Source of the DNA: a virus
Taxonomy: Duplodnaviria > Caudoviricetes
Strand: one strand, 5' to 3'
IMG/VR virus record: IMGVR_UViG_3300002220_000024
Location: 543 to 64,542 of that record
Length of the DNA stretch: 64,000 nt
The position numbers and the translations under genes are program-made. The notes beneath the pieces were generated by a model. The model did not search any database, was not told where the DNA came from, and saw nothing but the letters and a program-made list of their open reading frames with translations. Shown here in pieces: positions 9,709 through 62,555 of this stretch. Every line of letters starts with the position of its first letter. Positions within the stretch are counted from its first letter, which is position 1.

Positions 9709-9737
9709 ATTATACCCTCACACCATTCAGTAGTCAA
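9709..9737 (-). promoter_or_regulatory. Promoter module P1
   Basis: TTGACT-ACTGAATGGTGTGAGGG(17)-TATAAT upstream of ssb. Confidence 0.85.
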
Positions 9738-9766
9738 GCATAATTTATAAAAAGGGCCAGAATTTT

Positions 9767-10321
9767 TCAAGGCAGTTGTTTCAAAACATAATCTACTAAA
9801 TCTTCTCTATCGGGCAATAAGTAATTAGGAAAATTATAAGGTTGTGGGAACAATATTCCATAGCCACCATTATCATCCCATTCTTTAATATTGCTTAATC
9901 TATCATCAATTAGAATTTTATTTTTTCCAGCAACCTCTTGTTTTAATTGAGAGGGAGCAAAAATATAGTTTCTAAAACCCCAACCAAAATGGTTATGAAT
10001 CCATTCTAATTTTCCTTTTACACAGTTCGGACATTTACTTGGCGAAGTCAAAAGACAAAAGTTTTTATCTACTTTCTTTACCTTTTCTATAATTTCATTA
10101 AACCATGGATAAGGTTCTAAGTTAGCCCAAAAAGAATAACCGGCTTCATCTATTTTTTTCCACATTTGACTTTGTGGGATACCTAACATTTTAGATATAT
10201 CATAAACGTCTGGCTCTTTATAATCAACACAGAAAAGGTCACAAACACCTTTTGTCCAATTACATAAAACGCCATCTAGATCAAGGAATAATTTCATTAT
10301 TTTTCTATTAAAGTTTACCAA
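9767..10321 (-). CDS. HAD-family 5'(3')-deoxyribonucleotidase-like protein
   Basis: LFLDLDGVL, LLTSP, K..W, ILIDDR..NI.EW. Confidence 0.85.
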   Translation of the reverse strand: MVNFNRKIMKLFLDLDGVLCNWTKGVCDLFCVDYKEPDVYDISKMLGIPQSQMWKKIDEAGYSFWANLEPYPWFNEIIEKVKKVDKNFCLLTSPSKCPNCVKGKLEWIHNHFGWGFRNYIFAPSQLKQEVAGKNKILIDDRLSNIKEWDDNGGYGILFPQPYNFPNYLLPDREDLVDYVLKQLP

Positions 10322-11184
10322 ATAAAATATTTAAAAATTCAAAAGACATAATCAAATATTTCTTTGGGTTTAAGTAAGGTGAAACTTTCGGAAAATATAC
10401 ATAGAAAAATTCGCAAACATAAAATAGTATAAATATAGCAGTATATAGTGGCCAAGCAAATGTCTGAATAAATAATGATGATGTGTCAATTTTTTTACTC
10501 TCATTATATTCTATTAAACATGATAAGTACCAACCAATAAACCAAATCAAACCAATTAATAGGAAAATATTCATTTCTTCCTCAATAAATTATCAAACAT
10601 TATATTCTTCCCAATCAGAATGCTCATCAAAATCCATATAACTAACTTCTACATAACCAATCCACACAGAATAGATCGTAGATGTTTTCATTTTTAACTT
10701 AGAACATTTTCCTTCACAATGCTTTTTAACAAGATCAAAGAATCTAGATCGTTGAAAAGTAATTAAACCAATAGAACAGTCGTATGGTCTAAATCCTAAA
10801 TCACATAAATAGGATAAAACATCTATAGTTTCTTTCATTTTCATGAAAGTGTTTACATGTTGTTTTTGAATATTGTTTCTAACAAGGGGTGATGAACTAA
10901 TTTTCATTTTACAATCCTTCCTGACCATCAAAAGCTTCTTTAACTCTTTCTTTCCATTCACTTTTAGGAAAATTTCTTGCATATAAAAATGCTATAAGTT
11001 CTCCTGTTGAAAATCCCCCTCTACAATTACCAGTAATAATAGCTTCTTGAGGATAATAAATATGAGAATAGACCTCATAAGCTAATAATGTAACTTTTGA
11101 GTCTATTATAGCTTTTCTATTTGATGTATTCTTTTGTACTGGGTGTAATATTTTTTCCATTTTTTCCTTTTCAATAACTAGCAT
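10308..11184 (-). other. Three hypothetical CDS (10308-10574 membrane-like, 10593-10982, 10909-11184)
   Basis: ORF track; true starts of the latter two are probably internal (about 10907 and 11160). Confidence 0.55.
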
Positions 11185-11246
11185 TGAGACTCGAACTCAA
11201 AACCTCCTGATACAATTCAGGACTCTACCAATTAAGCTATGCTAGT
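11176..11246 (-). tRNA. tRNA-Thr(TGT)-like gene with a 6-nt anticodon loop (atypical or degenerate)
   Basis: Acceptor ACTAGCA/TGCTAGT, D arm GCTT-AATTGGTA-GAGT, stem CCTGA/TCAGG around ATTGTA, T loop TTCGAGT; no CCA. Confidence 0.65.
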
Positions 11247-11272
11247 GTTTTTATTCTTTATCAAATTTTAAA

Positions 11273-11345
11273 TGAAGCTATCGGAAGTCGCGTCCGAATT
11301 TCTACAGTGAAAGTGTAGTGTTCTAACTATTTAAACTATAGCTCC
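11273..11345 (-). tRNA. tRNA-Glu(TTC)
   Basis: GGAGCTA/TAGCTTC, CTACA-CTTTCAC-TGTAG, T arm TCGGA-CGCGACT-TCCGA (non-canonical loop); no CCA. Confidence 0.8.
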
Positions 11346-11350
11346 TTATT

Positions 11351-11518
11351 TTAATTTTCTTGCGATTCAGTCCACCAACAATCTGTACATTGTAATTCTT
11401 TTATAGAACCAAATTGGTCATAATCAACAACTACCCATTGTAGTCCAGATTCACATTCTGGACAAGTAAAATTATTAATCTTTTCTTGACGTTCAAAATT
11501 GTTTGATATCTCATCCAT
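11351..11518 (-). CDS. 55-aa zinc-ribbon microprotein inside the tRNA cluster (not in ORF track)
   Basis: MDEISNNFERQEKINNFTCPECESGLQWVVVDYDQFGSIKELQCTDCWWTESQEN; CxxC..CxxC. Confidence 0.6.
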   Translation of the reverse strand: MDEISNNFERQEKINNFTCPECESGLQWVVVDYDQFGSIKELQCTDCWWTESQEN

Positions 11519-11537
11519 TATCTATTCCTATTTAAAG

Positions 11538-11623
11538 CTCCAAGGGTACGGATCGAACGTACGACGGGGATTTCTCCCGCAAGATTAACAATCTTGTGCA
11601 ATCAACCACTCTGCCACCTTGGA
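11538..11623 (-). tRNA. tRNA-Asn(GTT) with long variable arm
   Basis: TCCAAGG/CCTTGGA, G73, CAAGA-TTGTTAA-TCTTG, variable region with GGGA-GAAA-TCCC, T arm GTACG-TTCGATC-CGTAC. Confidence 0.85.
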
Positions 11624-11637
11624 TTAAATCATCTAAT

Positions 11638-11708
11638 TCACTCACCCACGATTTGAACGTGAACCAATTGATTCAAAGTCAACTATGCTACCATTACACC
11701 AGTGAGTA
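11638..11708 (-). tRNA. tRNA-Gln(TTG)
   Basis: TACTCAC/GTGAGTG, GTTGA-CTTTGAA-TCAAT, T loop TTCAAAT; no CCA. Confidence 0.9.
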
Positions 11709-11715
11709 TTTTAAG

Positions 11716-11790
11716 TCTAGATGGAGAAATTCGAATTCTCGATATCTTGCTCCCAAAGCAAGTGGGTATAGCCATCTGCCCGACATCTAG
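11716..11790 (-). tRNA. tRNA-Pro(TGG)
   Basis: CTAGATG/CATCTAG, CTTGC-TTTGGGA-GCAAG, GAGAA-TTCGAAT-TTCTC; no CCA. Confidence 0.9.
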
Positions 11791-11806
11791 TTATTTTATT
11801 CCTTTT

Positions 11807-12206
11807 TTAATTCTCATATTTAGAAATAACCACTTCAAAATGAGTCATTTCTGGAAAATCTTTTGGGTCAATACTTAATCCATGACCAATTAAACCACTA
11901 TACATACTATCTAATGGCTCCTTTCCTCTTCTATCATTCATTCTAATCTGATTAGAGCAGGCTATCATTATATCTTTATGATATCCATTTTTATCAAAAG
12001 CTCTAATAACAATTTTAGTATTGTCCACTATTTCTTTCCTCTATTTCTTTCCTTAAAACCTCTTTCCTAGTTCTCAACCTTTTAGGTCTTGAATCATGTA
12101 AACCTGAACCACTTCTATGCGGAACATGACATTTCTTTTTCGATTGTTTAATTTCGATTTTGATTTTCTTTGGCATGATCGTGTCAGTATTATAGTCGAG
12201 GTTCAT
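11807..12206 (-). other. Two small hypothetical CDS (11807-12028; 12015-12206, very basic)
   Basis: ORFs between tRNA-Pro and promoter P2. Confidence 0.55.
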
Positions 12207-12217
12207 TCAGTAGTCAA
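12189..12217 (-). promoter_or_regulatory. Promoter module P2
   Basis: TTGACT-ACTGAATGAACCTCGAC(17)-TATAAT. Confidence 0.85.
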
Positions 12218-12243
12218 CGTTATTTTGAAAACTTTTTCATTAA

Positions 12244-12314
12244 TTGCGGGAATAGGATTCGAACCTATAGCTTCGGCTTATGAGGCCGACGATTTACCAT
12301 TACTCGATCCCGCA
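12244..12314 (-). tRNA. tRNA-Met(CAT), initiator-like sequence
   Basis: TGCGGGA/TCCCGCA, TCGGC-CTCATAA-GCCGA, ATAGG-TTCGAAT-CCTAT; resembles bacterial fMet tRNA; no CCA. Confidence 0.9.
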
Positions 12315-12320
12315 GTATGT

Positions 12321-12349
12321 ATTATATACGCTGACCAATCAGTAGTCAA
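12321..12349 (-). promoter_or_regulatory. Promoter module P3
   Basis: TTGACT-ACTGATTGGTCAGCGTA(17)-TATAAT, 6 nt before tRNA-Met. Confidence 0.85.
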
Positions 12350-12422
12350 CCATCTTTTTATTATTTTTCCAAAATTCGTTTTTGCGTTGGAAAGTCGTTT
12401 CAAACTTCCTTTCCGCTTATAT

Positions 12423-12451
12423 ATTATACACTCAAACCACTCAGTAGTCAA
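12423..12451 (-). promoter_or_regulatory. Promoter module P4
   Basis: TTGACT-ACTGAGTGGTTTGAGTG(17)-TATAAT, tandem with P3. Confidence 0.85.
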
Positions 12452-12491
12452 CCATGTAACCAAAATTTTTTCAAAGTTTCTGGTTTGTTGC

Positions 12492-12508
12492 GGACTAATG
12501 ATTAGTCC
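12492..12508. promoter_or_regulatory. Perfect 8-1-8 palindrome, candidate operator
   Basis: GGACTAAT-G-ATTAGTCC between divergent transcription units. Confidence 0.45.
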
Positions 12509-12552
12509 TATTTTCGATAAATTGTGTAGTTATTAGTAGGAGAACAATAAAT

Positions 12553-12702
12553 ATGCGTAAATTAACAGACGAACAAAAAATAGAAATCGTAAAAAAGTAC
12601 AAGTCCGGTATTTCATCTAGACAATTAGCTAAAGAATATAATGTTTGTAAGACATCGATATTATCATTATTAAAAGTTAGAGGAATTAAGCGTGAAAACT
12701 GA
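12553..12702 (+). CDS. 49-aa helix-turn-helix protein (not in ORF track)
   Basis: MRKLTDEQKIEIVKKYKSGISSRQLAKEYNVCKTSILSLLKVRGIKREN; AGGAG RBS upstream; overlaps the next gene by 11 nt. Confidence 0.7.
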   Translation: MRKLTDEQKIEIVKKYKSGISSRQLAKEYNVCKTSILSLLKVRGIKREN

Positions 12703-13777
12703 TTATTATGGGGTTATTTACAAAATTACTAATTTAGTGAATGGTAAGATTTATATAGGACAAAGCAAGAATTATAAAACTAGATGGAATGAACATAAAA
12801 GACTTTCAAAGAAAGAAGCAAATGCTAATGATACTGTTTTTGTAAGAGCTTTAAGAAAATATAGTATTGAAAAATTTACTTTTGAAATTATTGATTATGC
12901 AGAATCGGCACAAAAACTAAATGAATTAGAAGAATTTTATATCAAAGATTACAATTCTGTTGTTCCTAATGGATATAATCTAACTTCTTATATTAATGGT
13001 GTTTCAATATTATCTGAAGAATCTAGATTAAAAATGTCAGAATCTCGAAGGAATACTAAAAAACAATATTCTAGTTCAAATTATTATGGGGTATCTTTTA
13101 ATAATAAAACAAAAACATGGGGCGCTTATATTCATTTTAATAAAAAAACTTCATATATAGGATTTTATAAAACAGAGATTGAAGCTGCTCAAGCTAGAGA
13201 TATTGAAAGTTTAAAAGATGAATATTGCGGATTATTTGAATTAAACTTTATAGAATTAAAAGATGATTATCTATCTGGTAAAATTACAGTAAATAAAATT
13301 GAAAAAAATTTACAAGGTAAGTTAAAAAATATAAATAAAACATCTATATATGTCGGCGTTGTTTTTGAACAAAAATATAATTTATGGAGCTGTTCTATAA
13401 CTTATAAAAAGCAACGTTACCATCTAGGTTTTTTTGATACAGAAATAGATGCAGCTAAACGCTATGATATTGAATCAATAAAACTTTATGGAGATAAATC
13501 TGTTTTAAACTTTGAAACATTAAGAGATAATTATATTCAAGGTACAATACAAATAAAAAAACGAGAAAGAAAATACTGTTTAAAACCAAAAAATAATTCA
13601 TCTAAATATATAGGAGTGTCTTATAATAAACAAGTTAAAAAATGGACATCAAGAATTACATATTTAAGCAAAAGGTATTATTTAGGAAGGTTTTCTTCAG
13701 AAGAAGATGCCGCTAAGGCTTATGATAAAAAAGCAATTGAATTTTTTGGAGATAAAGCTGTAACAAATTTTAAATAA
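12692..13777 (+). mobile_element. Free-standing GIY-YIG homing endonuclease with three AP2-like DNA-binding repeats
   Basis: GVIYKITNLVNGKIYIGQS..R...H, ELEEFYI; three repeats of Y.GV.....W...I......G.F.TE..AA..YD. Confidence 0.9.
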
Positions 13778-13800
13778 AGCGTCAGTCCAAAGCCGACGCT
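13778..13800. terminator. Hairpin between convergent genes, possible bidirectional terminator
   Basis: AGCGTC-N11-GACGCT flanked by A/T tracts. Confidence 0.5.
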
Positions 13801-13823
13801 TCATTTTAATTTATAACTTAATA

Positions 13824-14342
13824 TTAACCAGTCCAAGCCGAATAATTCTTGGTTTCAACACCAGAATCTTCTCTGTATACTAATTTAGCAGGAACAGCAT
13901 AAGTTGGATTTGCTGCAATGTCTGCACCAACACCAGTAGTACCATCTAATCCACTAGCACTAACTCTTAATCCATTAGCAGAGCCATAAACAATATCACC
14001 ACTAAGAATATCTACGCTAGTAATATCGTAACGGTTATATCCATTAAATCCATTAATACCTCTAGTTTTTTCCATACCAGCGCCACCAACTAAAGCTGTT
14101 AAAGTGTTTCCACCAACAGTAGTTGTATAACCCATAGCAATGTGACTATTTTCTTTATTAAAATCACCACCACTAATTGCTTTCTGAACTAAACCAGATA
14201 CTTGTGGTTGACGAACATATAACATATTCGCGTCACCATAATCAAGTGATCCAATTTCATTACGTGTTACATTACCAGCATGTAATAAACTTGAGCCATT
14301 ATTCTTTACATTGTTTCCACTAATCGCTTTTGCAACTGACAT
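13824..14342 (-). CDS. Gly/Ser/Asn-rich protein, possibly virion-associated
   Basis: Composition unlike neighbours (small residues, low charge); function is inference only. Confidence 0.45.
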   Translation of the reverse strand: MSVAKAISGNNVKNNGSSLLHAGNVTRNEIGSLDYGDANMLYVRQPQVSGLVQKAISGGDFNKENSHIAMGYTTTVGGNTLTALVGGAGMEKTRGINGFNGYNRYDITSVDILSGDIVYGSANGLRVSASGLDGTTGVGADIAANPTYAVPAKLVYREDSGVETKNYSAWTG

Positions 14343-14405
14343 TTTATTCTCTTTAATTAAAAATCGTAATCCTATCCTTTTGAGTTCCTTTGTCCTCTAT
14401 CTAAT

Positions 14406-20335: not shown

Positions 20336-20931
20336 TATTCCCCTCTTTTTAAAATGTAATCGTTATTATCTATCCATCGTATTACAGGTTCTCCAACATG
20401 ATTTTTATTCCATACAAACCATCCGTAAACCATCATTCCTGTATTATATTTACCATCATTTCTTAAAGGCTCACCAAGCAAAGGGTATCGTGTAAAAACA
20501 TAAACTTTAGAAAGAGGAAAGATATTATCATTATATATCTTATCATATCTTTCTTTTCCATGTAAGTATGATAGCGGTAATAATAATACTAATTTATTAC
20601 ATAACTCCTTTGCTTTTAAAATAAATTCTAAAGCAAGAGAGAAAGGAGGATTAGTAATTATGGTATCATACTTTTCTTTTTCTTTTAGGAAATCATTACC
20701 AAGACTAAGATCTTTACCTACAACATTATAACCAATATCTCTTAATACTTTGAGTATTGCACCATCACCACAAGAAGGCTCTAATATTTTTTTAGTTTTA
20801 TCAAACGTTTCTCTTTCAAGTAACTGCCAAGTCATTGAATAAGGCGTTTCATAAAAATCAGATTTTTTTCTTTGCCCTAAATTATTTGCTGAGAAATTCT
20901 TTCCCATTAAAACTCCAACAAAGATAGCCAC
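20335..20931 (-). CDS. Small amino (N6-A/N4-C) DNA methyltransferase
   Basis: DFYETP, ILEPSCGDGAI, IITNPPFS. Confidence 0.85.
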   Translation of the reverse strand: MAIFVGVLMGKNFSANNLGQRKKSDFYETPYSMTWQLLERETFDKTKKILEPSCGDGAILKVLRDIGYNVVGKDLSLGNDFLKEKEKYDTIITNPPFSLALEFILKAKELCNKLVLLLPLSYLHGKERYDKIYNDNIFPLSKVYVFTRYPLLGEPLRNDGKYNTGMMVYGWFVWNKNHVGEPVIRWIDNNDYILKRGE

Positions 20932-20973
20932 CGATTTCTCGATGGCTATCGAATAAAAGCTATGTATTAAACA

Positions 20974-26209: not shown

Positions 26210-26228
26210 CGTGCCCTTGACAGTCTGT

Positions 26229-26257
26229 ATTATACAAGGCGACTAATCGGTAGTCAA
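26229..26257 (-). promoter_or_regulatory. Promoter module P5
   Basis: TTGACT-ACCGATTAGTCGCCTTG(17)-TATAAT. Confidence 0.85.
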
Positions 26258-26276
26258 CCTTCTTTTTAAAATCTTT

Positions 26277-26699
26277 TCAAGAATCAACCAACATCGTTTC
26301 CAAAACTTCTCTAACCGTTTTCGGTTCAACAGGCAAATTATTATCTTTGAAATAACGAATAGCAGCACCCATTGCTTTATTAAAAGGTGGTTCAAGCTTT
26401 ACGTTATGTAGATGTTGCTGAATTTCTTCTGGTGTTAAATATTTTGGTAAGTAAGAAGAAAGAATATTATTCTCAACATCAAGTAAACTAATTAAACTAT
26501 CTGCTTTAGTATCTTTACCCAATGCAATAGTATCGTTATTAGATTGAATAATCTTCTTAATAATGTTTTCTGCATTTGGTTTATTTCCGCGATTAACTTC
26601 TAATTCGTATTCAGAAACAACAAGGCGTAAAATAGAAATTTTTATTTTATCGTTTTCTTTTCTAGACGCTAGCAGTTCTTCTTTAATTTTTTCAATCAT
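26277..26699 (-). CDS. GatB/YqeY domain protein
   Basis: KIKEEL..SRK.NDKIK.SILRL, E..IL..YLPK.LT.EEI. Confidence 0.8.
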   Translation of the reverse strand: MIEKIKEELLASRKENDKIKISILRLVVSEYELEVNRGNKPNAENIIKKIIQSNNDTIALGKDTKADSLISLLDVENNILSSYLPKYLTPEEIQQHLHNVKLEPPFNKAMGAAIRYFKDNNLPVEPKTVREVLETMLVDS

Positions 26700-28244: not shown

Positions 28245-28279
28245 AATTTTGTGGCCGTAAGAGTAACTTGTCAGGCCAC

Positions 28280-28308
28280 ATTATACACGGAGATCAATTA
28301 GTAGTCAA
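28280..28308 (-). promoter_or_regulatory. Promoter module P6
   Basis: TTGACT-ACTAATTGATCTCCGTG(17)-TATAAT. Confidence 0.85.
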
Positions 28309-28339
28309 CCGTGTTTTCAAAAACTTTTCAAAATTCTGA

Positions 28340-29239
28340 TCAAGCTGTAGAAGAATCAAGCTCTTTAATGTAATCAAAACCGTTCCTGGTTAAACTTCTA
28401 CCAGAACCACTAATTTCAACAAAACGGCTTTTAATCAAAAACGGTTCAATATCGTTCATAATAGTAGATTGATCAATATTTAAAAGACTGGATAGTTGAT
28501 TAATACCAATTGTTCCGCACTTTAACTCTCTTAAGTATTGGATATCTCTATTCTCTAATCCATCTTTGTTATAACCTTGTAAAGCAATGATTTTTAACAC
28601 CTCTCCAGAAGAAATTTTAGTTAAATTATTACTAATCATCCAATTATACAACCATTCTGTTCTTGCTTTAACTAATCTAGGTACGCCCCTACAAGTTCTT
28701 GCAATTAACATTGCTAAATCTTCGTCTAATTTAAAACCTTGTTCTTGACAAGTTAGGTGACATACTTTAGTAAGTTCTTCTTCTGTATATTCAACAAACT
28801 CTGCATTAAATTTAAAACGAGATTTCATTGGTCCAGATATTTTTCCTGCGTGTGTACTAGCCGCAGCTATAGTAAATTCTGGCAAATTAACAACCCTTCC
28901 TTTAGTATCATAGTAACAAAAATCTTCCATTACTGTATACATAAATTCGGAACATTTTTTAGGCATACTATGAATCTCATCTAAAAACATAATATCCATA
29001 AAATTTATTTGATTAATAATATTTCTAATATCTTTTATATCACGTAAAGTTGCACAATTAATAGAAAAAAGGTTTTTGCCTAATTCCTTGGCTATAATTT
29101 TACAACATTTGCTCTTACCGAATCCTGCGGGGCCACCAAGAAAAAAATGATCACAAGCTTTGTTTCTAATCTTAGCAGCATTAATTAATGTTTTAAGAAC
29201 CTCTTTAACTTTTTCTTGACCTATAAAATCTTCAAACAT
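28340..29239 (-). CDS. ruvB: Holliday junction branch migration ATPase RuvB
   Basis: FEDFIGQEKVK, GPAGFGKS, FLDEIH, GP..SRF, RGVPR, IEPFL. Confidence 0.9.
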   Translation of the reverse strand: MFEDFIGQEKVKEVLKTLINAAKIRNKACDHFFLGGPAGFGKSKCCKIIAKELGKNLFSINCATLRDIKDIRNIINQINFMDIMFLDEIHSMPKKCSEFMYTVMEDFCYYDTKGRVVNLPEFTIAAASTHAGKISGPMKSRFKFNAEFVEYTEEELTKVCHLTCQEQGFKLDEDLAMLIARTCRGVPRLVKARTEWLYNWMISNNLTKISSGEVLKIIALQGYNKDGLENRDIQYLRELKCGTIGINQLSSLLNIDQSTIMNDIEPFLIKSRFVEISGSGRSLTRNGFDYIKELDSSTA

Positions 29240-31611: not shown

Positions 31612-31664
31612 AATTAATCCTAAATAAACTGAGATAGAACAACGATTCTTACTTGACAGCCCTA

Positions 31665-31693
31665 ATTATACCAGACGACCAATCGGTAGTCAA
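31665..31693 (-). promoter_or_regulatory. Promoter module P7
   Basis: TTGACT-ACCGATTGGTCGTCTGG(17)-TATAAT. Confidence 0.85.
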
Positions 31694-31704
31694 CGTTCCG
31701 TTCA

Positions 31705-32447
31705 TTATTTTTTACGAAGTTTTTCAGAATGAAGTTTAGCCTGAAGGCTTCCAGCGGGACCATTATTATGAATTAGAAGACTACAACTCTTACCTAAAAC
31801 GCAGTGTGAGTCATCATCATCTAATGGTAAACCTAATTCTTTAGCTTCTTGCTCTGAATAAACAACCTGACTAAAAGGTAAATTAAACTTATCAATTAAA
31901 TTATAATTGCAACTAATGCAAAATTAGAAGGGAATAAGTCTAGGTGTTGTGTAACTAAACGAAGGCTCTTAGTATATCCATAAAATTTAGTATTCTTATT
32001 TTCCCTAGCTAAATTAAAATAAGCAAATAACTGCTCTTTATTAAACACATCACCAGAAACATGAAAACGAACAATACCAGTATTTTTTGGGAATACTCGC
32101 AACAATTCCTCAGTAATATCTGAGTTAGTCTTTAAAGACTTCATTAGATCAAAGTTTGCTTTTCGTAGATTATATACTCCGGTATAAACAACCTCTTGTG
32201 AAGCAGAAAAACACCTAAACTCCATATCCTTTCCGTCCACCAATTTACGTTTACCATTATCTTCTACTACTTTAGATAAACATTCATTTGCTCCTGGACA
32301 ACTATGACCAGAAAGAAGGTCAAAAGAAAAGATTTGCTTTCCTGTTTTTTTGTTGAATTTACGAAGTTTATAAACTTCATGTAATTTTTTAATCTTAGTA
32401 TTTGCCGGGCTAAATTTAAACATTATATCTCCAAAAAATAAGGACAA
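31705..32447 (-). pseudogene. Gp88-like (radical-SAM-related) phage gene broken by a frameshift near 31905
   Basis: CPGA..C..C, RFHVSGD, YTK; after ..FALVA the C-terminal part continues in another frame (YNLIDKF..VVYSEQEA..LGLPLDDDDSH..LLIH..PAGS) to TAA at 31705. Confidence 0.65.
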
Positions 32448-35787: not shown

Positions 35788-35824
35788 TTTATGTTCCTTG
35801 TAAGAGGGTGACTTGACAGACTAC

Positions 35825-35853
35825 ATTTTACAGCACGACCATTCGCTAGTCAA
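35825..35853 (-). promoter_or_regulatory. Promoter module P8
   Basis: TTGACT-AGCGAATGGTCGTGCTG(17)-TAAAAT. Confidence 0.8.
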
Positions 35854-35872
35854 GTGTGATTTCATAATTTTT

Positions 35873-36115
35873 TCAGTTTAGTGACGGTTCAGTATTCACT
35901 TTTTGACGCATTAAAAGCGTGTAGGTGTGATTAACATAAAGATTTAGAATATACTCATATACATTGAAAAATCTTGGATCTAAAGCTAAAACAGTAAGAT
36001 ACCCAATCATATAAGTATAAACTTCAATATCTTTTTTCTTGATAAAATCAAGTTTGTCATCAATAGAGATATCTAGGTTTTCTAAGCATTGATTTCCAAA
36101 ACTATTGTTTTCCAT
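35873..36115 (-). CDS. Hypothetical protein
   Basis: ORF ending at the P8 upstream TGA. Confidence 0.55.
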   Translation of the reverse strand: MENNSFGNQCLENLDISIDDKLDFIKKKDIEVYTYMIGYLTVLALDPRFFNVYEYILNLYVNHTYTLLMRQKVNTEPSLN

Positions 36116-40124: not shown

Positions 40125-40161
40125 ACCTTAAAAGAGTAACTTACCGTCCCGTCATGCTACC

Positions 40162-40190
40162 ATTTTACCACTGATTCATTCGTTAGTCAA
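40162..40190 (-). promoter_or_regulatory. Promoter module P9
   Basis: TTGACT-AACGAATGAATCAGTGG(17)-TAAAAT. Confidence 0.8.
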
Positions 40191-40207
40191 GTACAAACTC
40201 AGAATTT

Positions 40208-40834
40208 TTACAGATGCGGAACATTTCGCGATTCATTCCTTGGTCGCATCGACCAATTATAGTCAAGCAAATAATTGTGAGAGTTTCCTTCAAGATCAAA
40301 CCTCTTATCAGAGAATGTCAATTTAACAAAAGTTCTAACACCATCTTCAATTTCTCCTACTTTATGAATACAATATTGATCCAAACATAGAATAGAATTA
40401 AGAGGGAATGTAACATTATTCTCTGGTAATGCTTGTTCTTCCATTTCCTTTAGTGATAACTGGTCATCTTGACTAAGAATAAAAGGGGAAGTATTAAATA
40501 TGGTGGGTTGAGAATCACAAAATAAATAGTTTATATCATCTGACATATAAGAATCAGAATGAAGACCTTTACGATTAAATCCACATCCATTTCTCTGAAA
40601 CATCCTTTTTGCAGTTAAATAAACATACATAGAACGATATTTATCTACACCAAACCTATTATTATAGTGGTGAACTACATCATCAATTAAATTAGTAAAA
40701 GGCCACAACCTTTCTTCTATTCTGTAGTAACTATGACCAGGCATTTTAATTGGTAGGTATTGATAAGTAAAAAATTCTCTCCTACCTTCATCTTCGAAAA
40801 AATAACCAACTACTTCTGGTAATTTGCCGTACAT
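40208..40834 (-). CDS. 2OG-Fe(II) dioxygenase-like protein
   Basis: R.GLHSD (HxD), distal IH, RTFVKL. Confidence 0.65.
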   Translation of the reverse strand: MYGKLPEVVGYFFEDEGRREFFTYQYLPIKMPGHSYYRIEERLWPFTNLIDDVVHHYNNRFGVDKYRSMYVYLTAKRMFQRNGCGFNRKGLHSDSYMSDDINYLFCDSQPTIFNTSPFILSQDDQLSLKEMEEQALPENNVTFPLNSILCLDQYCIHKVGEIEDGVRTFVKLTFSDKRFDLEGNSHNYLLDYNWSMRPRNESRNVPHL

Positions 40835-43970: not shown

Positions 43971-44083
43971 TCTAATCTCCTATTCATTTATATTGTTGTA
44001 CTATCTCCCTAAGATATATACACCGAAAACAAATGAATAGGAAACAAAAGATTTCTTAACGGCTAACGTTCCGTCATGCCGGT

Positions 44084-44112
44084 ATTATACAGTCGGACTA
44101 TTCAGTAGTCAA
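44084..44112 (-). promoter_or_regulatory. Promoter module P10
   Basis: TTGACT-ACTGAATAGTCCGACTG(17)-TATAAT. Confidence 0.85.
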
Positions 44113-44131
44113 CCATCGAACTAAAAATCAT

Positions 44132-44611
44132 TCAGTCTTTTTTCAATGGAGTGACCAAAAGTGGACAGTTTGAGAATAACATATCTTGAATAATTACCAT
44201 ATTAATTACCTTTTCATTCTCGGCTGTATAAGGAGGAATAAATTCAATAACTTTAACAGTATCTCCAGATTCACAACCAGAACCCATTGAAGAGTATAAC
44301 TTCTTAAGAATAGTATATTCTCCTGGTTCAACTTTATCTTTAGAAAGATCAAACGTTTTTACCAACCTAGAAATCCATTCTTCTGTTAAATCTTTATAAC
44401 TATATGGGATATTATGATCGCAAACGAAACCATATTCTTTTGGATATAGAATTTTTACATCATAATAATAACCATATAGCTGTCCTAAAATACAAGTTGA
44501 TGGTAAAGACATATTAAATTTTTGTAAATCAATTTTACCTTGCCATCCAGGATAAATAGAATTTAATAAAGCAACACCACGATCAACTTCTTTTGAATAA
44601 TCAAATTTCAT
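44132..44611 (-). CDS. CILGQL-family paralog 1 (unknown function)
   Basis: RGV.LLN..YPGW..KIDL...NM.....CILGQLYG; similar to 49475 and 52255. Confidence 0.7.
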   Translation of the reverse strand: MKFDYSKEVDRGVALLNSIYPGWQGKIDLQKFNMSLPSTCILGQLYGYYYDVKILYPKEYGFVCDHNIPYSYKDLTEEWISRLVKTFDLSKDKVEPGEYTILKKLYSSMGSGCESGDTVKVIEFIPPYTAENEKVINMVIIQDMLFSNCPLLVTPLKKD

Positions 44612-47253: not shown

Positions 47254-47294
47254 TCTTTACTTTCATTCTGGTGGATATCGACTGGACAGCCTAC

Positions 47295-47323
47295 ATTTTA
47301 CACCGTATTCATTCGCTAGTCAA
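47295..47323 (-). promoter_or_regulatory. Promoter module P11
   Basis: TTGACT-AGCGAATGAATACGGTG(17)-TAAAAT. Confidence 0.8.
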
Positions 47324-47342
47324 GTGTGTTTTCAGAATTTTT

Positions 47343-47920
47343 TCAAAACGCCTGAATGTAATAGGGTCGATCTTCTTCAGGTAGAATCTTACAATCTTTT
47401 CTTTCCATATCATAAAAAGAGTTAATCTCTCTAAAAATCCTACTCTTAATTTTATAGGTTTTATTATTATGGGTTAGGTAGAAGTAGTAATATTCTCCTT
47501 CTCTTACTATATCATTTTTCTTTCTAAACCAGTTTACAGCCCTATATCCATTTTCTTCTGGTAGTTGCAACCATTTATAAAAAATATATTGAGATAAAAT
47601 AAGATTACCACTTTCCTTATTGTGGTAGTGATTTAAAACAATTTTCTCAACATAGATTTCTTCTATATTTGTGATCGGAATATAAGATAAAAGGAGAAAA
47701 AATAGTGTTTTCATTCCTTCTTTTCGCCTTCTACTAAAGAGAAAAATCCAATAGCACCAAAAATAACCCCACCAACAATATGAAGTCCTGCAATTTCTGA
47801 TAAATCAGGATCAGAAGCAGTTATTAAACCAACCAAAATACCAATTAAACCAATAATTAAATAAAGTACAGCGTAACCATTACTCATAAAACATTCCACA
47901 AAAAATAAAGAAATTACCAA
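47343..47920 (-). other. Hypothetical CDS 47343-47714 (signal-peptide-like start) and 47711-47920 (two TM segments)
   Basis: ORF track; hydrophobicity. Confidence 0.55.
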
Positions 47921-49474: not shown

Positions 49475-49780
49475 TTATACACTTCTTAATTCCTTAATTT
49501 TATTTTCCCATTCTTGTTGAAGAATTCCCCAAGCTAAAACATCTTTTTCTTCATCTTCATACGAAACACCAAAACCCATTTCTTCTGTTTCATTCCAAGA
49601 AAGGTTATATTCATGTTTAATTGAGTGAAAACCACAAATATCTTCTCCTGGTCTAACTTGACCTAAAATACAACATTTTCCATCTGTCATATTTAATTCT
49701 TCTAAATTTATTTTACCTAACCAATCAGAAAAGTTTTCATTAAGAAACGCAACACCAGATTCAATTTGTTTTTCAAACAT
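49475..49780 (-). CDS. CILGQL-family paralog 2
   Basis: GV.FLN....W..KINL..LNM....CCILGQV. Confidence 0.7.
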   Translation of the reverse strand: MFEKQIESGVAFLNENFSDWLGKINLEELNMTDGKCCILGQVRPGEDICGFHSIKHEYNLSWNETEEMGFGVSYEDEEKDVLAWGILQQEWENKIKELRSV

Positions 49781-49811
49781 TATTTTCTTTCAAAAGAGGA
49801 TAAATAAACAA

Positions 49812-49885: not shown

Positions 49886-49893
49886 ATAACAAT

Positions 49894-52162: not shown

Positions 52163-52206
52163 TTTTACTCTCTCTTTTGTTGGATTATCGTTCCCGTCAA
52201 GCCCCC

Positions 52207-52235
52207 ATTATACATAAGGACTATTCAGTAGTCAA
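52207..52235 (-). promoter_or_regulatory. Promoter module P12
   Basis: TTGACT-ACTGAATAGTCCTTATG(17)-TATAAT. Confidence 0.85.
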
Positions 52236-52254
52236 CCATCGGTTCAAAAATCGT

Positions 52255-52716
52255 TCAAACCTTTTTTGGAACAACGATTATTGGAGGATCAAGATATAAA
52301 CGATTATTATGTACTATTACATTGCATACATTATTTTTGGTTTCTAACCCATCTATATATTCTTTCTCTAATACATCAATTACATCGCCCTCTATAAACC
52401 CTTGTTGATTTACACCAAAAACAATATATTTTCCTGGTTTTACATCATCAATATCTAGGTTAAATTTTTGTATAAAACGAGATTTCCATTCTTTTGTTAG
52501 TTTTAGCATATCACTATCACTAATTGTGCTGAATCCATATTCAAAACATTGATCATGAGTTAAAGGATTTAAACAATAATCTCCATATAGTTGGCCAAGA
52601 ATACATAGTTTTGGATCACCCATATTTAAATTATCAATATCGATTTTTTCTTTCCATCCTGGATTGAAGAAATTTAAAAACATAACACCACGATTAACAA
52701 CTTCTTTAATATTCAT
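52255..52716 (-). CDS. CILGQL-family paralog 3
   Basis: RGV.FLN..NPGW..KIDI..LNM....CILGQLYG..EYGF..LT.EW.SR; C-terminal module shared with 44132. Confidence 0.7.
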   Translation of the reverse strand: MNIKEVVNRGVMFLNFFNPGWKEKIDIDNLNMGDPKLCILGQLYGDYCLNPLTHDQCFEYGFSTISDSDMLKLTKEWKSRFIQKFNLDIDDVKPGKYIVFGVNQQGFIEGDVIDVLEKEYIDGLETKNNVCNVIVHNNRLYLDPPIIVVPKKV

Positions 52717-54647: not shown

Positions 54648-54691
54648 TTTTCTACTTTCAGGTTTGCGGGATAAACTAGCGGACAGCCTGC

Positions 54692-54720
54692 ATTTTAGCA
54701 GGCGTTTATTCAGTAGTCAA
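54692..54720 (-). promoter_or_regulatory. Promoter module P13
   Basis: TTGACT-ACTGAATAAACGCCTGC(17)-TAAAAT. Confidence 0.8.
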
Positions 54721-54739
54721 CCATCAGACTAAAAATCGT

Positions 54740-56101
54740 TCAAGATTTTTGATACTTGTGGTAAAGATAATGTTTCTTCATCATGTTTATACCAGATTCA
54801 ATATCATGAAACTTACATTCCAATTGCTTAGAATAAAGATAATTTAATATTATACCTAAATCTTTTCCTTCTGGGATGTATTGTAAAATATCTTTACCAG
54901 AAACAATTTTCTTAGGCTTCTCATTTTGAACACCAAGTTCAATAGCAATTTCAAGCATTTTTCTTGCTTTTTCCGGCATTTTCTTTTCTTTTGGCGGTCT
55001 TCCACTATGATCAGCTTCAATTAATAAAACAAGATCAAGAATACTTGCTTTACCAATTTTAACAGATAGTCTATTAACGCTTCTTTTAGAAGCATCATTA
55101 AGATGAACCATATGGTTTTCAACCAAAGGAACAACCTTTTCAATAATTTCATTAGGACATTTAATCCTATTTAAAAAACTTCTAGTTAATGGTCCACCTT
55201 CAACATCATGAGAAGGAGCAGAAATTCTACCTTTTCTATAAACAGTAGTAGTTGCTTTACCTAAATCATGACATAAAGCAGCAAGAATTAAGATTAACTT
55301 TCTTTCACCAGAAATATTCTCTCTTAAACAAATATCATTCATTGCATTTACAACATAACAAGTATGAGTATAAACACAACCTTCAGGATGGAATTCTAAT
55401 TCTTGTGGAACTCCAAGAATATCTCTTAACTCAGGAAAATTATCAATCCAATGAGTCATAACCAAAAAATCAAGACCAGCTTTATGATTTGTACTCTTTA
55501 AAGCCCATTTCTTGAATTCTTCCCAGAATCTTTCTTTAGATAGAGAAGAAAAACTATCCTTAATATTTTTACATAAACGAATAGTAGAAATATCTGCAAT
55601 CAAATCAAAACGACCACAGAATTGAAAACCTCTTAATACTCTAAGAGGATCATCAGAAAAATATTCTGAAGTATGTCTTAAAATCTTTTTATTAAGATCA
55701 TCAATACCATTGAAAGGGTCAACAACATTACCATCTTCGTCTTTACTAATAGAATTAAAAGTAAAATCTCTTCTTTTTGCTGCTTCTTCAATAGTCATAG
55801 TTGAATCAACAACAACTTCAAAGTCTTTGTGACCAACACCAATTTTACTATCTCTTCTTGGCAGAGAGAAGTCATAATCATTATCATTTGTAGTTAATTT
55901 AATAACACCAAAAGATTGACCAACAACATCTACCTTACCAAACTCAGAAAGAATTTTAATTAGTTTTTGAATATCAACATTGAATACTTCAATATCAATA
56001 TCTTTGTTTTCAATACAAAGAATTTCATCCCTTACACAACCACCAACAAAGTAAGATCTACCACCAACTTCATTGATTTTTTCAAGAATGTTTTTGATCA
56101 T
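54740..56101 (-). CDS. cca: CCA-adding tRNA nucleotidyltransferase with HD domain
   Basis: VGGCVRD..DIDIE, RRDFT.N, DDPLRVLRG, HPEG....H, LCHDLGK. Confidence 0.9.
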   Translation of the reverse strand: MIKNILEKINEVGGRSYFVGGCVRDEILCIENKDIDIEVFNVDIQKLIKILSEFGKVDVVGQSFGVIKLTTNDNDYDFSLPRRDSKIGVGHKDFEVVVDSTMTIEEAAKRRDFTFNSISKDEDGNVVDPFNGIDDLNKKILRHTSEYFSDDPLRVLRGFQFCGRFDLIADISTIRLCKNIKDSFSSLSKERFWEEFKKWALKSTNHKAGLDFLVMTHWIDNFPELRDILGVPQELEFHPEGCVYTHTCYVVNAMNDICLRENISGERKLILILAALCHDLGKATTTVYRKGRISAPSHDVEGGPLTRSFLNRIKCPNEIIEKVVPLVENHMVHLNDASKRSVNRLSVKIGKASILDLVLLIEADHSGRPPKEKKMPEKARKMLEIAIELGVQNEKPKKIVSGKDILQYIPEGKDLGIILNYLYSKQLECKFHDIESGINMMKKHYLYHKYQKS

Positions 56102-56140
56102 TTTATTCTTTTAGCAAGAGTTAACGAACGAACAACACAC

Positions 56141-56169
56141 AGTATAACGTGTGTTCATTCATTAGTCAA
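56141..56169 (-). promoter_or_regulatory. Promoter module P14
   Basis: TTGACT-AATGAATGAACACACGT(17)-TATACT upstream of cca. Confidence 0.75.
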
Positions 56170-56473
56170 CCACTCAACCAACAATCGAGCAACCTTTCTT
56201 TAACCACTACGGAAATACTTGTATTATATCCGTTTTAAAAACACTTTCAAGCAAAAAGAGGAGAAAATTATTTTTATTTCGAGGTTCTCTAAAACGCTCT
56301 CTAACGCATTGTAAAGCAAACTTGATTCATTACACCTAGAATCAGTTTAATCGCTTTACATTGGATTTTAGCAGCATTATCAGCTATCCCAAAAGATAGC
56401 TTTCAAGAAGTAGACAAAAGTAAACAAGAGCACCAATTCTACCATAATTATTTAACCCAAGACAAAATTTTTA

Positions 56474-57926: not shown

Positions 57927-58046
57927 GACCTTGAAGTAACATCAAAGCCATTTCCATAACAATCTTTTCTGCCAAACTCTTTACTGGATCAATTCCGTTA
58001 TTCATTATAAACTCATTTCGTGGTTGAAAACCGCAGCACGACCCGC

Positions 58047-58075
58047 ATTATAGTCTATGACCATTTAGTAGTCAA
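58047..58075 (-). promoter_or_regulatory. Promoter module P15
   Basis: TTGACT-ACTAAATGGTCATAGAC(17)-TATAAT. Confidence 0.85.
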
Positions 58076-58145
58076 CCACGTAACCAAAAATCGTTCAACA
58101 GTTTTCCAGAAGGCGTTTCAATCGCAAATCTGCGTTGTTTAAGTT

Positions 58146-60876
58146 TTACTTCTTTAATATCTTCCTAAGAGGATAAAACATAATCTTATTAAAGGTATCT
58201 ACATCAAAATATAATATTGACATAACAAAAAAACTAATAGGCCATAAAAATACCCCCCAAAGCCATTCCACTATATCAACATTAAAATAATCATTTACCC
58301 AGGCCCAAAAACAAACATTCAAATACCCAATAAAAAGGTAAATAAGAATATAAGTTATAATCATAGATTCTCCAAACAATTTTCTTTAATTAGTGTTACA
58401 AAAGCTGTAGATGATGTCTTTATATCTTGCACAAAATAAATCCGATCACAAGGACTCTTAACACAAAGAGCATTATTATTAACTAATTTAATATATTCAA
58501 ATGAATTGTGACCATCCTTAATGTCTATGTTAAAAACAAATTTATCTCCAACATTCAAATCATTAAATGTTTTTCGTGGCGCCGGATTACAAACCGACCA
58601 TTTGGTAATATAAAGTTTCTTTATTTCCACATCACAATTATATTCTTCTGCTAATTCTTTAGCAATTGATTCAACAACCCTTATTGATTCAATAGCTCCT
58701 ACATCAATCCAATCAATAACCCTTGGTGTAGAACTAAAATGTCTAATAGCATTAGTTCTGCCACAATAATAACCTTTATCCTGAATATAAATACAATACA
58801 TATCATTTTCCCTTTTTAAGTCTTTCGGACCACAAACAAACTTTAATAAAAATCTACATTTGAAACGGTTTTTGATTCAATACCTAACGCAGCCCAATTC
58901 TTTTTATTATTCCTTGTTCTTGCAGGATTATTTGAGTCTTTCATTTTAATTAACATAACTCTGCATTTAGTACTAAGATAAGTAGATACAATTCTATCAT
59001 CAGCTAGTTTAGTGCCTATAATCCAAAATTTGTTTTCATCTATAGATATGCTAACAACCTTTCCAGCAAAGAATTCATCATTATGATTAAGACCAATAAT
59101 ATCTCCATATTCAAGACTAGAAGCAAAACAACTTAACATAATATACAATCCTAATAAAAGAGTAAAAGCTAATTGAAAGCTAATTGAGTGAGAACAACCT
59201 TAAAACCACAAGAAAAAGTTTAGTAATTAAACGTAATATTTGTTTTTGTGGGCAGAATTACACATAATACTAGGAAAATGAATACTATTTTAGTGTGGAA
59301 AATCTATATCTAGTGAACAATCATCGTTTTTTACTACATATAGAAAGGAGAATAATACAGAGCAAAATAATCGTTTTATGTAATAATCCCTATAGAAGAA
59401 TAAATTAAACACTTAAATAAAAACAAAACAATAAGAGAGCAGATAGGAAAACAACTAATTTTTGGCCAATTTTGTGAAAGTCGTCCAAAATTAATAAGAT
59501 TTCAACCCTTTTTCATCATTTTTTAACAACTTTTCATCAATTTTTGATAAATATCTTCCAAATTTTACAAAACTAACCTTCAAAACAAGCAAAAATCATC
59601 CAAAAACAGACAAAAAATCACTATCTTTCATCTGTTTGAAAAAAGTTGATGTTTACCGGGATCAAAACCTATTCACTCTTATAAGAAAGTTGCTATATTT
59701 TTTACAAGCTCAAACCTATCAGACTAAATAGGGTAAAAACACTCCTAAAAGACCCAAAACAATAACAATACAAATTGCAATCACAAAATCATCTTTCATA
59801 GCTTACCTTTTTTTAAATTCTTTTTCGGGTCACAAAAATCAATCAATCAAAATACTGTTCAACAATATCAAAAACAGTTTCATCAATAAAAGAGTAAAAG
59901 GTAGAAAACCCACCAAACTCTATTTCTAATCCTTTTTGTTCAAGAGGATTATCAGTATAATAGCAAGACAAGAATACATATCTTACCAACGCAATAAGAG
60001 TTTCCTTATCATAAGCAGTTCCAATATTCATTCCATTACTTGTGATTTTATAACCGTTCATTTTTTTCTCTTCTTTTTGTGATTCTTCAAGAATATTACA
60101 TAATTCGTCCATTACCATAAAACTATAAATATTTCCAATACATTCCTTTGCTGTTTTTGGAGCCGTTAAGCATTTCACTTCTCTATTACCAACCTTTTCA
60201 TAAGACCAATAATAGTTTCCATCCTTAACACTCTCGTCAAAATTAAAAACAAACTTCTGACCAATAACAACTTCTGAAAACTTCATCTGTATTCTTTCTT
60301 TTAAGATTTTCTTTCGGGCCACAAAAACAACTAAAACACTATTCACAACAAGATTCATTCACATAAGAATGATTAAACATTAAACCACACTTTTTATATT
60401 CTTTCTCCCATTGTTCATCTGTTCCACTTTTCATTACAATAGAACAAAATGGTTCAACTTCATTCTTTTTTACTTCTTCAACAAAAGCATACATTCCTGT
60501 AGCAGCAGAATATTCTCTATAACTAGGATCATAAGAGAAATCACTTTCAATAGTGATATATTCATTTCCTTCTGCAACAACTAAGTAATTAAATCCATTG
60601 TATTTAACAACTTCAGAACCAATAACAAAACCATCTTTGTTTTCACTGTTGAACATTTTTATTCTCTTTCTTTTTGTGGGGTGATTAAAATTGACCAAAC
60701 ATTAAAACAATCTGTTTGTTAATTTCTTCTTCTAATTTTTCCTTTATTGGACACATTTTCTTAACCTTTACACCATTAAAATTAACAGTGTAAAACAATG
60801 TTCCCATCTTATTTTCTACAACATCAACAATGATGTCTTGATTCAACTTCTTATGATTAATAATAATTGTTGTCAT
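58146..60876 (-). other. Small hypothetical CDS (58146-58379 membrane, 58361-58801, 58843-59148, 59719-59799 26-aa TM peptide, 59843-60286, 60339-60698, 60685-60876)
   Basis: ORF track plus manual translation. Confidence 0.5.
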
Positions 60877-60918
60877 TATCGTTGTCCAAAACCGAGGTAA
60901 TTTTCCGCCGCGACCCCC

Positions 60919-60947
60919 AGTTTACACGATTTTCATTCAGTAGTCAA
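60919..60947 (-). promoter_or_regulatory. Promoter module P16
   Basis: TTGACT-ACTGAATGAAAATCGTG(17)-TAAACT. Confidence 0.8.
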
Positions 60948-61013
60948 CTATACAACCAAAATTCGTTCAAGAAAAAGGAAAGAAGATATACAACATTTAT
61001 TCAAAATAAAGAC

Positions 61014-61042
61014 TTGACTCCCACCAAAATGCCCGTTATAAT
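61014..61042 (+). promoter_or_regulatory. Lone plus-strand sigma-70 consensus promoter, divergent from P16
   Basis: TTGACT-CCCACCAAAATGCCCGT(17)-TATAAT with an A-rich upstream region. Confidence 0.7.
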
Positions 61043-61245
61043 GTGTCCGAGTCTATTTAATTTTACAAACAATAAAAGCCAAACTATTTCTAGTCTGGCT
61101 CTAAAGAATATAATAGGGAAAAAGATTAATATCCCATTAAAAACCTAATTAAGACAAGAAACAAACATAAAAAACCTACCACTACCACCAAAGCAAAAAT
61201 ATCAGAAGCTTTATTAACAATCATCATTCAATCCACAAAAAGAGT

Positions 61246-62488
61246 TTAGTAACCTAACCAAGCCAAAACAACATTTCTTTCCGGCTTCAATTCAACCCAT
61301 TCTTGAAAATGTTTTCCATCCTTAGAATAACATTCAACAGCCATCAATTTTCCATTCTCAATTTTACATTCAATATTATGTAAGAGGAGAAGGTTTATTA
61401 ATTTATTCATAATCAAAACCACAAAAGAAAAACAACTAACACCAAGGCCAGATAAAACAATTTCTACCTGGCCACAAAATTATCTTCAATCAATACTGTT
61501 CAGAAACATTCTTCTTGGATTTATCATCCATAGAATAAATAATAGCACCAAGATAACCTTTCAACAAATCAAATTTATCCCTGTAGAAATTATAATCATC
61601 CCAATTACCTTGTTCTACGGAACAATCAATACCATTTTTACAATGTTCAATTCTGCCACAAACATAATTAATCATTTTGTTGTGGTTTCGATCCTTCATC
61701 ATAAACTTTTCAGGATCAACCATTTGAGTAATCATTTCATCATTCACCAGAGTCTCAATCAACATCTTACCATTAGTAAGATAGGCTTTAATCCAACCAA
61801 AAAACATTCCATTGTTTCTATGTCGAACCTTTGTTCCAATTGCGGTTTCATTCACAACAACAGGAGCAAAACCAGACTTAACAGCGAAATTGAAATTAAT
61901 CATTCTTCTTCTCTTTTCTTAGGGTTTTAAAACAAACAACTGATCTAAATATTAATCCTCAATAACTTCTTTCAGAACAACATACTGTTCTTGAGTGATA
62001 TAATTATCACGAAGCAATTGAAGAAGATCAGAAACGCACTTCGTTTGCATTTTAACAAGCCTGGTTTTCATCTTCATAATGTCAGATACCTTATCAGACA
62101 ACTCTTTCATCAATTCTTTCTTGAGGAGTTCTTCTTGAAGTTCACACATATCATTCAAAAACAAATCAGCCATTGAATTACGGCTTGATTCAAGAGCCAT
62201 TTTAGTTTCAATGATCAAAGATCGAGTCAACATTTTAATAACTTTCAAAGAGGTGAACAAAACAACAACAGAGAGAACTATCTAGTTCTTATACACAGTG
62301 TGAGTAAAACAAATTCCTTTAACCCACACAAACCTAAAACCTAAACCAAACATTCTTCCAGCGACACCATATTCTCCATTCTTAAACAGAACAGCAATTC
62401 TTCCAAAGAAATTAACACCATGAGAGATTTTCTTGATCATTTTTCTAACTTTCAAAAGAGTGAAAACCACACCAACAAAAACCACCAA
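61246..62488 (-). other. Small hypothetical CDS (61246-61410 54 aa, 61490-61903, 61952-62260, 62282-62488)
   Basis: ORF track plus manual translation. Confidence 0.5.
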
Positions 62489-62496
62489 CAGCCCAC

Positions 62497-62525
62497 ATTA
62501 TACACTCTGACCATTTAGTAGTCAA
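62497..62525 (-). promoter_or_regulatory. Promoter module P17
   Basis: TTGACT-ACTAAATGGTCAGAGTG(17)-TATAAT. Confidence 0.85.
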
Positions 62526-62555
62526 CCATGCAATCATTATTTATTCATTATTGTG

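Follow-up and report, generated by a model that had tools for sequence, protein, structure and literature searches.

Seventeen putative promoter modules in an uncultured low-GC phage and the origin of the stop codon at their upstream edge

Why should several genes that stand upstream of a repeated, promoter-like sequence all end on the same nucleotide of that repeat? The question is raised by a 64,000-nt stretch of phage DNA, hereafter the window (IMG/VR virus record IMGVR_UViG_3300002220_000024, positions 543 to 64,542), which holds 17 copies of a module of about 75 bp; in six of them the preceding gene stops on a TGA that lies a fixed distance upstream of the -35 hexamer. A preliminary description of this locus took the module for a unit that supplies both the end of one gene and the promoter of the next, making the region an array of cassettes that recombination could swap, and named as a simpler alternative a protein-contact site into which open reading frames (ORFs) merely run. 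It is the simpler alternative that fits best. Judged from their sequence, the 17 modules are probably strong early promoters for the host sigma-70/sigma-A RNA polymerase, and the stops on TGA would come from the crowding of genes against them. The window is nearly the whole of the 64.5-kb record (estimated completeness 47%), has a guanine-plus-cytosine (GC) content of 29.8% and carries nearly all of its genes on the minus strand. It is the early/accessory region of an uncultured large phage that has no close cultured relative.

Number and anatomy of the modules

Exactly 17 copies were present in the window, all on the minus strand and each at a site listed in the preliminary description. Modules are named here by the plus-strand position of the first T of the minus-strand TTGACT. 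This hexamer, a spacer that is always 17 nt long and a -10 box of the TAWAAT type were found in 17/17 copies, as had been described, with TATACT and TAAACT as variants in one copy each. The pattern TTGACTANNRANTRN9TAWAAT gave 15 matches on the minus strand, none on the plus strand and none in a reversed control. A weight matrix covering positions -60 to +10 was built from the modules, and both strands as well as shuffled sequence were scored with it, a check proposed with the original description. The modules scored 47–77 bits, the rest of both strands at most 8 bits, and the shuffled maximum was -13.5 bits, a separation which implies that the family has exactly 17 members in the window, with no decayed copies and no further member. 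Each of the 17 occupies a gap between genes of the minus strand and shares their orientation, and the plus strand has no copy; in sum the modules take up about 2% of the window sequence.

The conserved block was sharply bounded. Pairwise identity between copies was 0.54–0.56 from about -60 to -13 and 0.35 just past the -10 box, and lay at the background of 0.29 beyond -60 and about +15. Column counts gave an upstream consensus made up of an A-tract at -65 to -61, TTTTG at -60 to -56, A6 at -55 to -50, TTTTG at -49 to -45, A4 at -44 to -41 and A-T-G-G at -39 to -36, followed by TTGACT. The upstream part consists of about 2.5 units of 11 bp with the form A5-6 T4 G, its A-tracts centred near -63, -52 and -42 and therefore spaced by about one helical turn; the outermost tract, at -65 to -61, falls within the upstream coding sequence. 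Phased A(n)T(n) tracts are a textbook source of DNA curvature ahead of strong promoters, and in known strong promoters the UP-like or curved region is contacted by the polymerase's alpha-subunit C-terminal domains (alpha-CTD). In the modules, the phased tracts would form an UP-element-like, intrinsically curved upstream region, which may act through alpha-CTD or through its curvature. Agreement with the UP consensus NNAAAWWTWTTTTNNNAAANNN averaged 9.1/14, against 7.55 at random positions of the AT-rich strand (resampled p < 5e-5), the consensus being that of E. coli. The best copies reached 11/14, and the TGAACGATTTTT subfamily matched poorly.

Four positions of the -10 region, T-12, A-11, A-9 and T-7, were invariant. 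The -35 hexamer extends into a conserved 14-bp block, TTGACTAcTGAaTg (-29 to -19 of every module, e.g., 62490–62519, minus strand), and within the spacer A-29, A-25 and T-23 were invariant and C-28, T-27, G-26 and G-22 nearly so. Together with a GGTC or AGTC, this block makes an imperfect palindrome, GACTAC-N-GGTC, in 11/17 copies, and in six copies GGTC is replaced by GAAn with the remainder kept. A scan of the window did not find the motif of the 14-bp block outside the modules, and the block could be an operator. Around the expected start site, GGCTG followed by TCAAG or ACGG was also conserved.

The modules look like early promoters of the host type, in keeping with the preliminary description. 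Behind most of them a run rich in purines and then an ATG come within 10–100 nt, and two are predicted to drive RNA units; the tRNA-Met gene behind module 12349 starts at the seventh nucleotide past the -10 box, where the start site is expected. The units between modules are operons of 1.4–5 kb with 3–12 genes. The housekeeping sigma-70/sigma-A polymerase of the host would read the 17 modules, each heading one such operon of small early or accessory genes, and one of them a tRNA.

The TGA and the ends of the upstream genes

A TGA at -57 to -55, i.e., 22–20 nt upstream of the -35 hexamer, occurs in 12/17 copies, and the longer form TGAA(C/T)GA(T/A)TTTT in five (44112, 52235, 54720, 58075, and 60947); both counts agree with those first reported, as do the six cases in which this TGA is the upstream stop codon. 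These are module 26257 (26212–26287), which closes the YqeY-like ORF 26277–26699; 35853 (35808–35883; ORF 35873–36115); 44112 (44067–44142; ORF 44132–44611); 47323 (47278–47353; ORF 47343–47714); 52235 (52190–52265; ORF 52255–52716); and 54720 (54675–54750), which closes the gene for the CCA-adding enzyme (54740–56101), all on the minus strand like the modules that follow. A seventh copy, 40190 (40145–40220), reads TGTAA, and ORF 40208–40834 stops there on the TAA at -55, two bases past the TGA position.

Ten ORFs abut a module in total. Besides the six that end on the TGA and the one that ends on the TAA, two stop 10–12 nt before that point and one stops 51 nt before it, and none of the ten (0/10) reads into the -35 hexamer. 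The two near misses are ORF 9767–10321, which stops 10 nt ahead of position -57 of module 9737 (9692–9767; TGG there with no TGA, 47.9 bits), and ORF 28340–29239, which stops 12 nt ahead of, and in the same frame as, the TGA of module 28308 (28263–28338); the more distant end belongs to module 58075 (58030–58105), whose TGA is not a stop. The TGA is likewise no stop codon in module 12217 (12172–12247), where the tRNA-Met 3' end lies 4 nt upstream of it, in 60947 (60902–60977) and in 62525 (62480–62555), and it has no abutting ORF in 12451 (12406–12481). Module 12349 (12304–12379) carries TGG at -57, 56169 (56124–56199), which precedes the CCA-adding enzyme gene, carries TGC, and 31693 (31648–31723) carries GTAA, shifted by one base, with no abutting ORF of at least 30 amino acids.

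The origin of the TGA can be read from the module itself. At -57 it is the T4-G-A6 junction of the repeated A5-6 T4 G unit, so that it arises from the promoter-upstream element, and a second TGA stands at -46, the same place in the next unit, in 7/17 copies. The dinucleotide TG at -57/-56 is kept in 16/17 copies, including the tRNA-adjoining copy 12217 and copies without an abutting ORF, whereas of the 11 copies in which the A at -55 is not part of a stop only six keep it. The conserved feature is therefore the TTG plus A-tract of the promoter upstream part; the stop codon comes along with it and is additionally held where it is used as a stop. Compaction would account for the rest of the arrangement. 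The median gap between minus-strand genes is -1 nt and the gaps that hold modules are near-constant at 67–95 nt; since genes overlap or touch in this way, upstream genes are pressed against the fixed upstream edge of the module. Crowding would push a gene against this edge and, in the right frame, the gene would end on the TGA. A module built to supply the end of a gene, as initially proposed, is not supported, because the TGA comes from the A/T repeat and the TG is kept where no ORF abuts.

Comparison of gene ends among homologs pointed in the same direction. Orthologs of the CCA-adding enzyme (P0002–P0010) have ...HKYRK as their common ending, past which tails of 1–12 residues follow. In the proteins that are 61–74% identical to the enzyme of the window, encoded on contigs of 92–164 kb, the distances from the last conserved Lys to the end are 1, 3, 3, 12, 1, 1, 8, 3, 7, and 7 residues. 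An identical enzyme (P0001) is encoded on six contigs of up to 116,875 bp. A second small family with database orthologs, represented in the window by ORFs 44132–44611 and 52255–52716, has ends that vary by 0–3 residues. Such variable ends imply that the stop is not fixed relative to the protein and, as read from proteins alone, fit genes that run into whatever follows. The C-terminus of the CCA-adding enzyme is evolutionarily loose.

The two ORFs of the second family are paralogs (36% identity, E = 4e-27) that align to within one codon of their ends. Both end on the TGA of their own module, and these modules (44112 and 52235) are each other's nearest in the spacer. The homology spans gene and module and then ceases, the genes downstream being unrelated. 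Two of the six TGA-stop cases are accordingly not independent, gene and module having been inherited together. A third, partial paralog of the pair lies at 49475–49780.

Known systems and competing explanations

Upstream parts of this kind have well-known counterparts. One is the UP element of rrnB P1 in E. coli, with a consensus reportedly described by Estrem et al. in 1998; curved DNA with phased A-tracts lies upstream of the early promoters of the Bacillus phages SP82 and SPO1. The modules resemble both in having an A-tract, a T-tract and a second A-tract, phased with the helix, between -60 and -40. They differ from the UP consensus in a register shifted by 2–3 nt, in a third A-tract at -65 to -61, and in a TG at -57/-56 and -46/-45 that is far more fixed.

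The early promoters of phage T4 have been described as 'uber' promoters that combine UP, -35, TGn and -10 elements with additional, unexplained consensus (Hinton, 2010; PMC2988021). The GenBank record of T4 is without promoter features, so the comparison was made with our own scan for -35/-10 patterns over its first 50 kb. Stops of upstream ORFs fell 3–120 nt before -35-like hexamers, and 3–10 nt before them at three candidate sites, which indicates that gene ends overlapping the upstream part of a promoter are common and that a single fixed stop position is not. The window resembles T4 in its many near-identical and, as predicted here, very strong promoters of the host-polymerase type across the early region of a large phage, in an A/T-rich, UP-like upstream part, in consensus beyond the sigma-70 elements, and in upstream genes that end in or just before the upstream part. 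In contrast to T4, the modules have TTGACT at -35 (GTTTAC in T4), lack the TGn, are built upstream on a regular A5-6 T4 G repeat, and hold the module stops on one fixed nucleotide, while those of T4 vary in position (-3 to -120). Kinship with T4 is putative at most: the window has rIIA, rIIB, td, an RNA ligase and tRNAs, neither it nor the rest of the 64.5-kb record holds T4 core genes, and the best matches to cultured phages, at 28–34% identity, belong to mixed groups.

A parallel for the stop codon itself is offered by promoter-early stem-loop (PeSL) elements, in which the codon that ends the preceding gene forms the first motif (Arbiol, 2010; PMC2839356, Fig. 2 legend). PeSLs reside in hyperplastic regions of T4-type phages, where indels and replacements between close relatives fall at the elements and mini-circles form. 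Double use of the upstream edge is thus already on record for such elements. Like the PeSLs of RB49/phi1, T4/PST and KVP40/nt-1 (Arbiol, 2010, PMC2839356; Comeau, 2014, PMC4122927), the modules combine an upstream stop in an AT-rich stretch with sigma-70-like -35 and -10 boxes, and they are direct repeats among small genes of no known function. In PeSLs a Shine-Dalgarno sequence and start codon come after the promoter, for which the purine-rich run and ATG behind most modules are candidates. Unlike PeSLs, they have no consistent stem-loop and no terminators, and their units are operons of 3–12 genes. Folding of the 17 copies gave a mean z of -0.40 for the 70 nt that precede the -35 hexamer (-105 to -36) and -0.51 for -35 to +25, with z < -2 in only 3/17 copies; beyond these three, the one inverted repeat present was weak and 5 bp long (GACTA..TAGTC or GGTC), in 11/17 copies. 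A terminator-like hairpin within 400 nt upstream was found for only 1/17 modules (60947; hairpin 61102–61075). With both scans inconsistent across copies, a terminator or stem-loop was rejected as part of the module, and in the absence of the defining stem-loop the modules are not PeSLs in the strict sense. A genuine PeSL-like array is found on contig Ga0180438_10007666 (L099, 600–13100, plus strand), from an unrelated phage with 42% GC. There, 16 TTGACA-N17-TAtAaT promoters within 14 kb each have ahead of them GAACCTTAAAG, its inverse or both, from which stem-loops form, and upstream ORFs often end inside the motif. The two arrays have in common a one-strand series of promoters with a repeated upstream motif where ORFs end, but the motif of that contig makes real stem-loops and lies at a variable distance from the -35 hexamer.

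The modules might still be PeSL-type mobile cassettes that have no stem-loop, in which recombination between repeats of about 70 bp swaps blocks of genes and the TGA guarantees each block a stop. Seventeen direct repeats in one orientation, with exact cores of 14–17 bp, agree with this, as does a PeSL description that opens with an AT-rich region in which the gene upstream has its stop (PMC2839356). Within the modules, moreover, upstream, spacer and downstream sub-blocks show almost no coupling, as if modules were chimeric (Mantel r 0.01–0.20), and similarity of the downstream block tracks genome distance (r = 0.46, p = 2e-4). Both paralogs end on a module TGA with their homology halting after the module, and the tRNA-Met gene forms a one-gene unit flanked by two modules. 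The uncoupled sub-blocks, the distance-dependent downstream block, the paralog pair and the tRNA unit are compatible with exchange inside modules but no more than suggestive; selection that acts separately on the individual sub-blocks would lead to an identical picture. Against cassettes stand the inconsistent folding and the single upstream hairpin, which implies that the units are not transcriptionally isolated, as well as units that are operons of several genes rather than lone ORFans. A cassette would be served as well by a stop placed shortly before the module, so that the TGA adds nothing to recombination, and the tails of 1–12 residues in the CCA-enzyme orthologs and the median gap of -1 nt speak against a gene-end-supplying unit. 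Cassette exchange is not needed to explain the TGA, and we consider it unlikely. Doubt is greater for a narrower version, in which the unit that duplicates or recombines is a gene end on the TGA plus a promoter, with neither stem-loop nor terminator, and the fixed stop is inherited within a portable joint; it would have left its footprint in the paralogs at 44.1 and 52.2 kb. That the stop coincidence is due to chance or to ORF calling is very improbable indeed. It is true that six of ten abutting ORFs ending on the TGA is a modest excess over the one third expected when reading frame alone is considered (binomial p = 0.077), and that two of the cases are paralogs; however, the six ORFs are 80–453 amino acids long, several of them fall into recognized families (CCA-adding enzymes, YqeY-like proteins and one for which databases hold orthologs), and six stops on one nucleotide position among dozens need a conserved TGA.

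The promoter interpretation, too, leaves features that count against it in its plain form. An extended -10 TGn (-15 to -13), an optional promoter element, is not a feature of the module, with T-15 in 4/17 and G-14 in 5/17 copies and the full element flagged in copy 54720 only among the 17 scanned. The shifted UP register has been mentioned, and the fixity of T-57, G-56, T-49 and T-46 goes beyond what a generic UP element calls for. Neither TTGACTAcTGAaTg nor the conserved start region is accounted for by sigma-70 contacts. Finally, of the ten abutting ORFs eight share the frame of the TGA (p = 0.003 against one third), which, in a test made post hoc, exceeds what simple running-in predicts. 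The very fixed TG positions and the 14-bp block may be a site for some factor, and a further explanation makes them operators for a dedicated DNA-binding protein of phage or host that switches all 17 early operons together. Its sites would be TTG at -58 to -56, TTTTG at -49 to -45 and, most importantly, the extended -35 block of 14 bp with GACTAC-N-GGTC, the TGA being part of the site. The invariant and near-invariant spacer positions are unread by sigma-70, the palindrome recurs in 11/17 copies, the motif is absent outside the modules, and the TG repeats, phased by 11 nt, resemble tandem half-sites. On the other side, no candidate factor or known consensus was matched, six copies swap GGTC for GAAn with all else kept, and the early promoters of T4 have unexplained extra consensus with no known factor (PMC2988021). 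The chance of a dedicated switch is put as small, though appreciable. Sites for IHF, Fis, CRP, FNR and LexA and the Cheo box were looked for by eye in the upstream and spacer motifs and were rejected, as was, likewise by eye, a second overlapping promoter using the upstream TTGAAA.

If the modules are early promoters, no new mechanism is involved, as arrays of early promoters, UP-like parts and upstream stops in an AT-rich part have already been described for T4-type phages. What the window adds is a 17-member set of regular, predicted very strong promoters from an uncultured low-GC phage lineage, which could be used as a promoter model and help to annotate relatives of the lineage, and a case in which the A/T-tract grammar of a promoter upstream element can yield a stop codon at no cost, under strong pressure for compaction. 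Were the modules recombination joints, the PeSL idea would extend to stem-loop-less units in a lineage far from T4.

Lineage and neighboring features

The window encodes rIIA, rIIB, a thymidylate synthase (td) with an endonuclease insert, an RNA ligase, the CCA-adding enzyme, glycosyltransferases, homing endonucleases and seven or eight tRNAs. A megablast search with 12 kb of the window against cultured phages gave no match, and the best protein identities to cultured phages were 28–40%, from a mixture of T4-like, Felix-O1-like, rV5-like and cyanophage records. Scans of IMG/VR with the promoter pattern returned single chance-level matches only (one, then 119), and a scan over GTDB genomes returned one chance match. 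Locus searches in IMG/VR reached at best 28% identity (rIIA-based) and 51% (CCA-based), with no close relative, and a CCA-based search of JGI metagenomes reached 50% as the best identity among the matches listed.

Three modules (12217, 12349, and 12451) stand in tandem within about 235 bp (12172–12481, minus strand). Module 12349 drives, by prediction, the tRNA-Met gene at 12244–12314, and across this unit (12244–12349, minus strand) the predicted start site coincides with tRNA position 1, so that there is no 5' leader; the CCA is not encoded. Module 12451 precedes a unit of about 60 nt that carries the hairpin GGAAAGGAAGTTTGAAACGACTTTCC, for which a known RNA family was rejected as there was no match in Rfam. 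Behind module 12217, an ATG about 6 nt after the expected start site opens a Lys/Arg-rich ORF of about 52 amino acids.

Two plus-strand homing endonuclease genes, 12692–13777 and 62684–63508, are GIY-YIG/HNH-type paralogs with 43% identity and lie back-to-back with modules 12451 and 62525, respectively; the two endonuclease-to-module spacers shared no homology outside the module. In two modules a hairpin brackets the -10 box, namely GCCTGC/GCAGGC in 54720 and a strong hairpin in 56169. Three further minus-strand hairpins (61446–61473, 61075–61102, and 20923–20950) have the form GCCA...GAAA...TGGC with a GAAA loop, two of them with T-rich tails, and may be terminators or RNA-processing signals.

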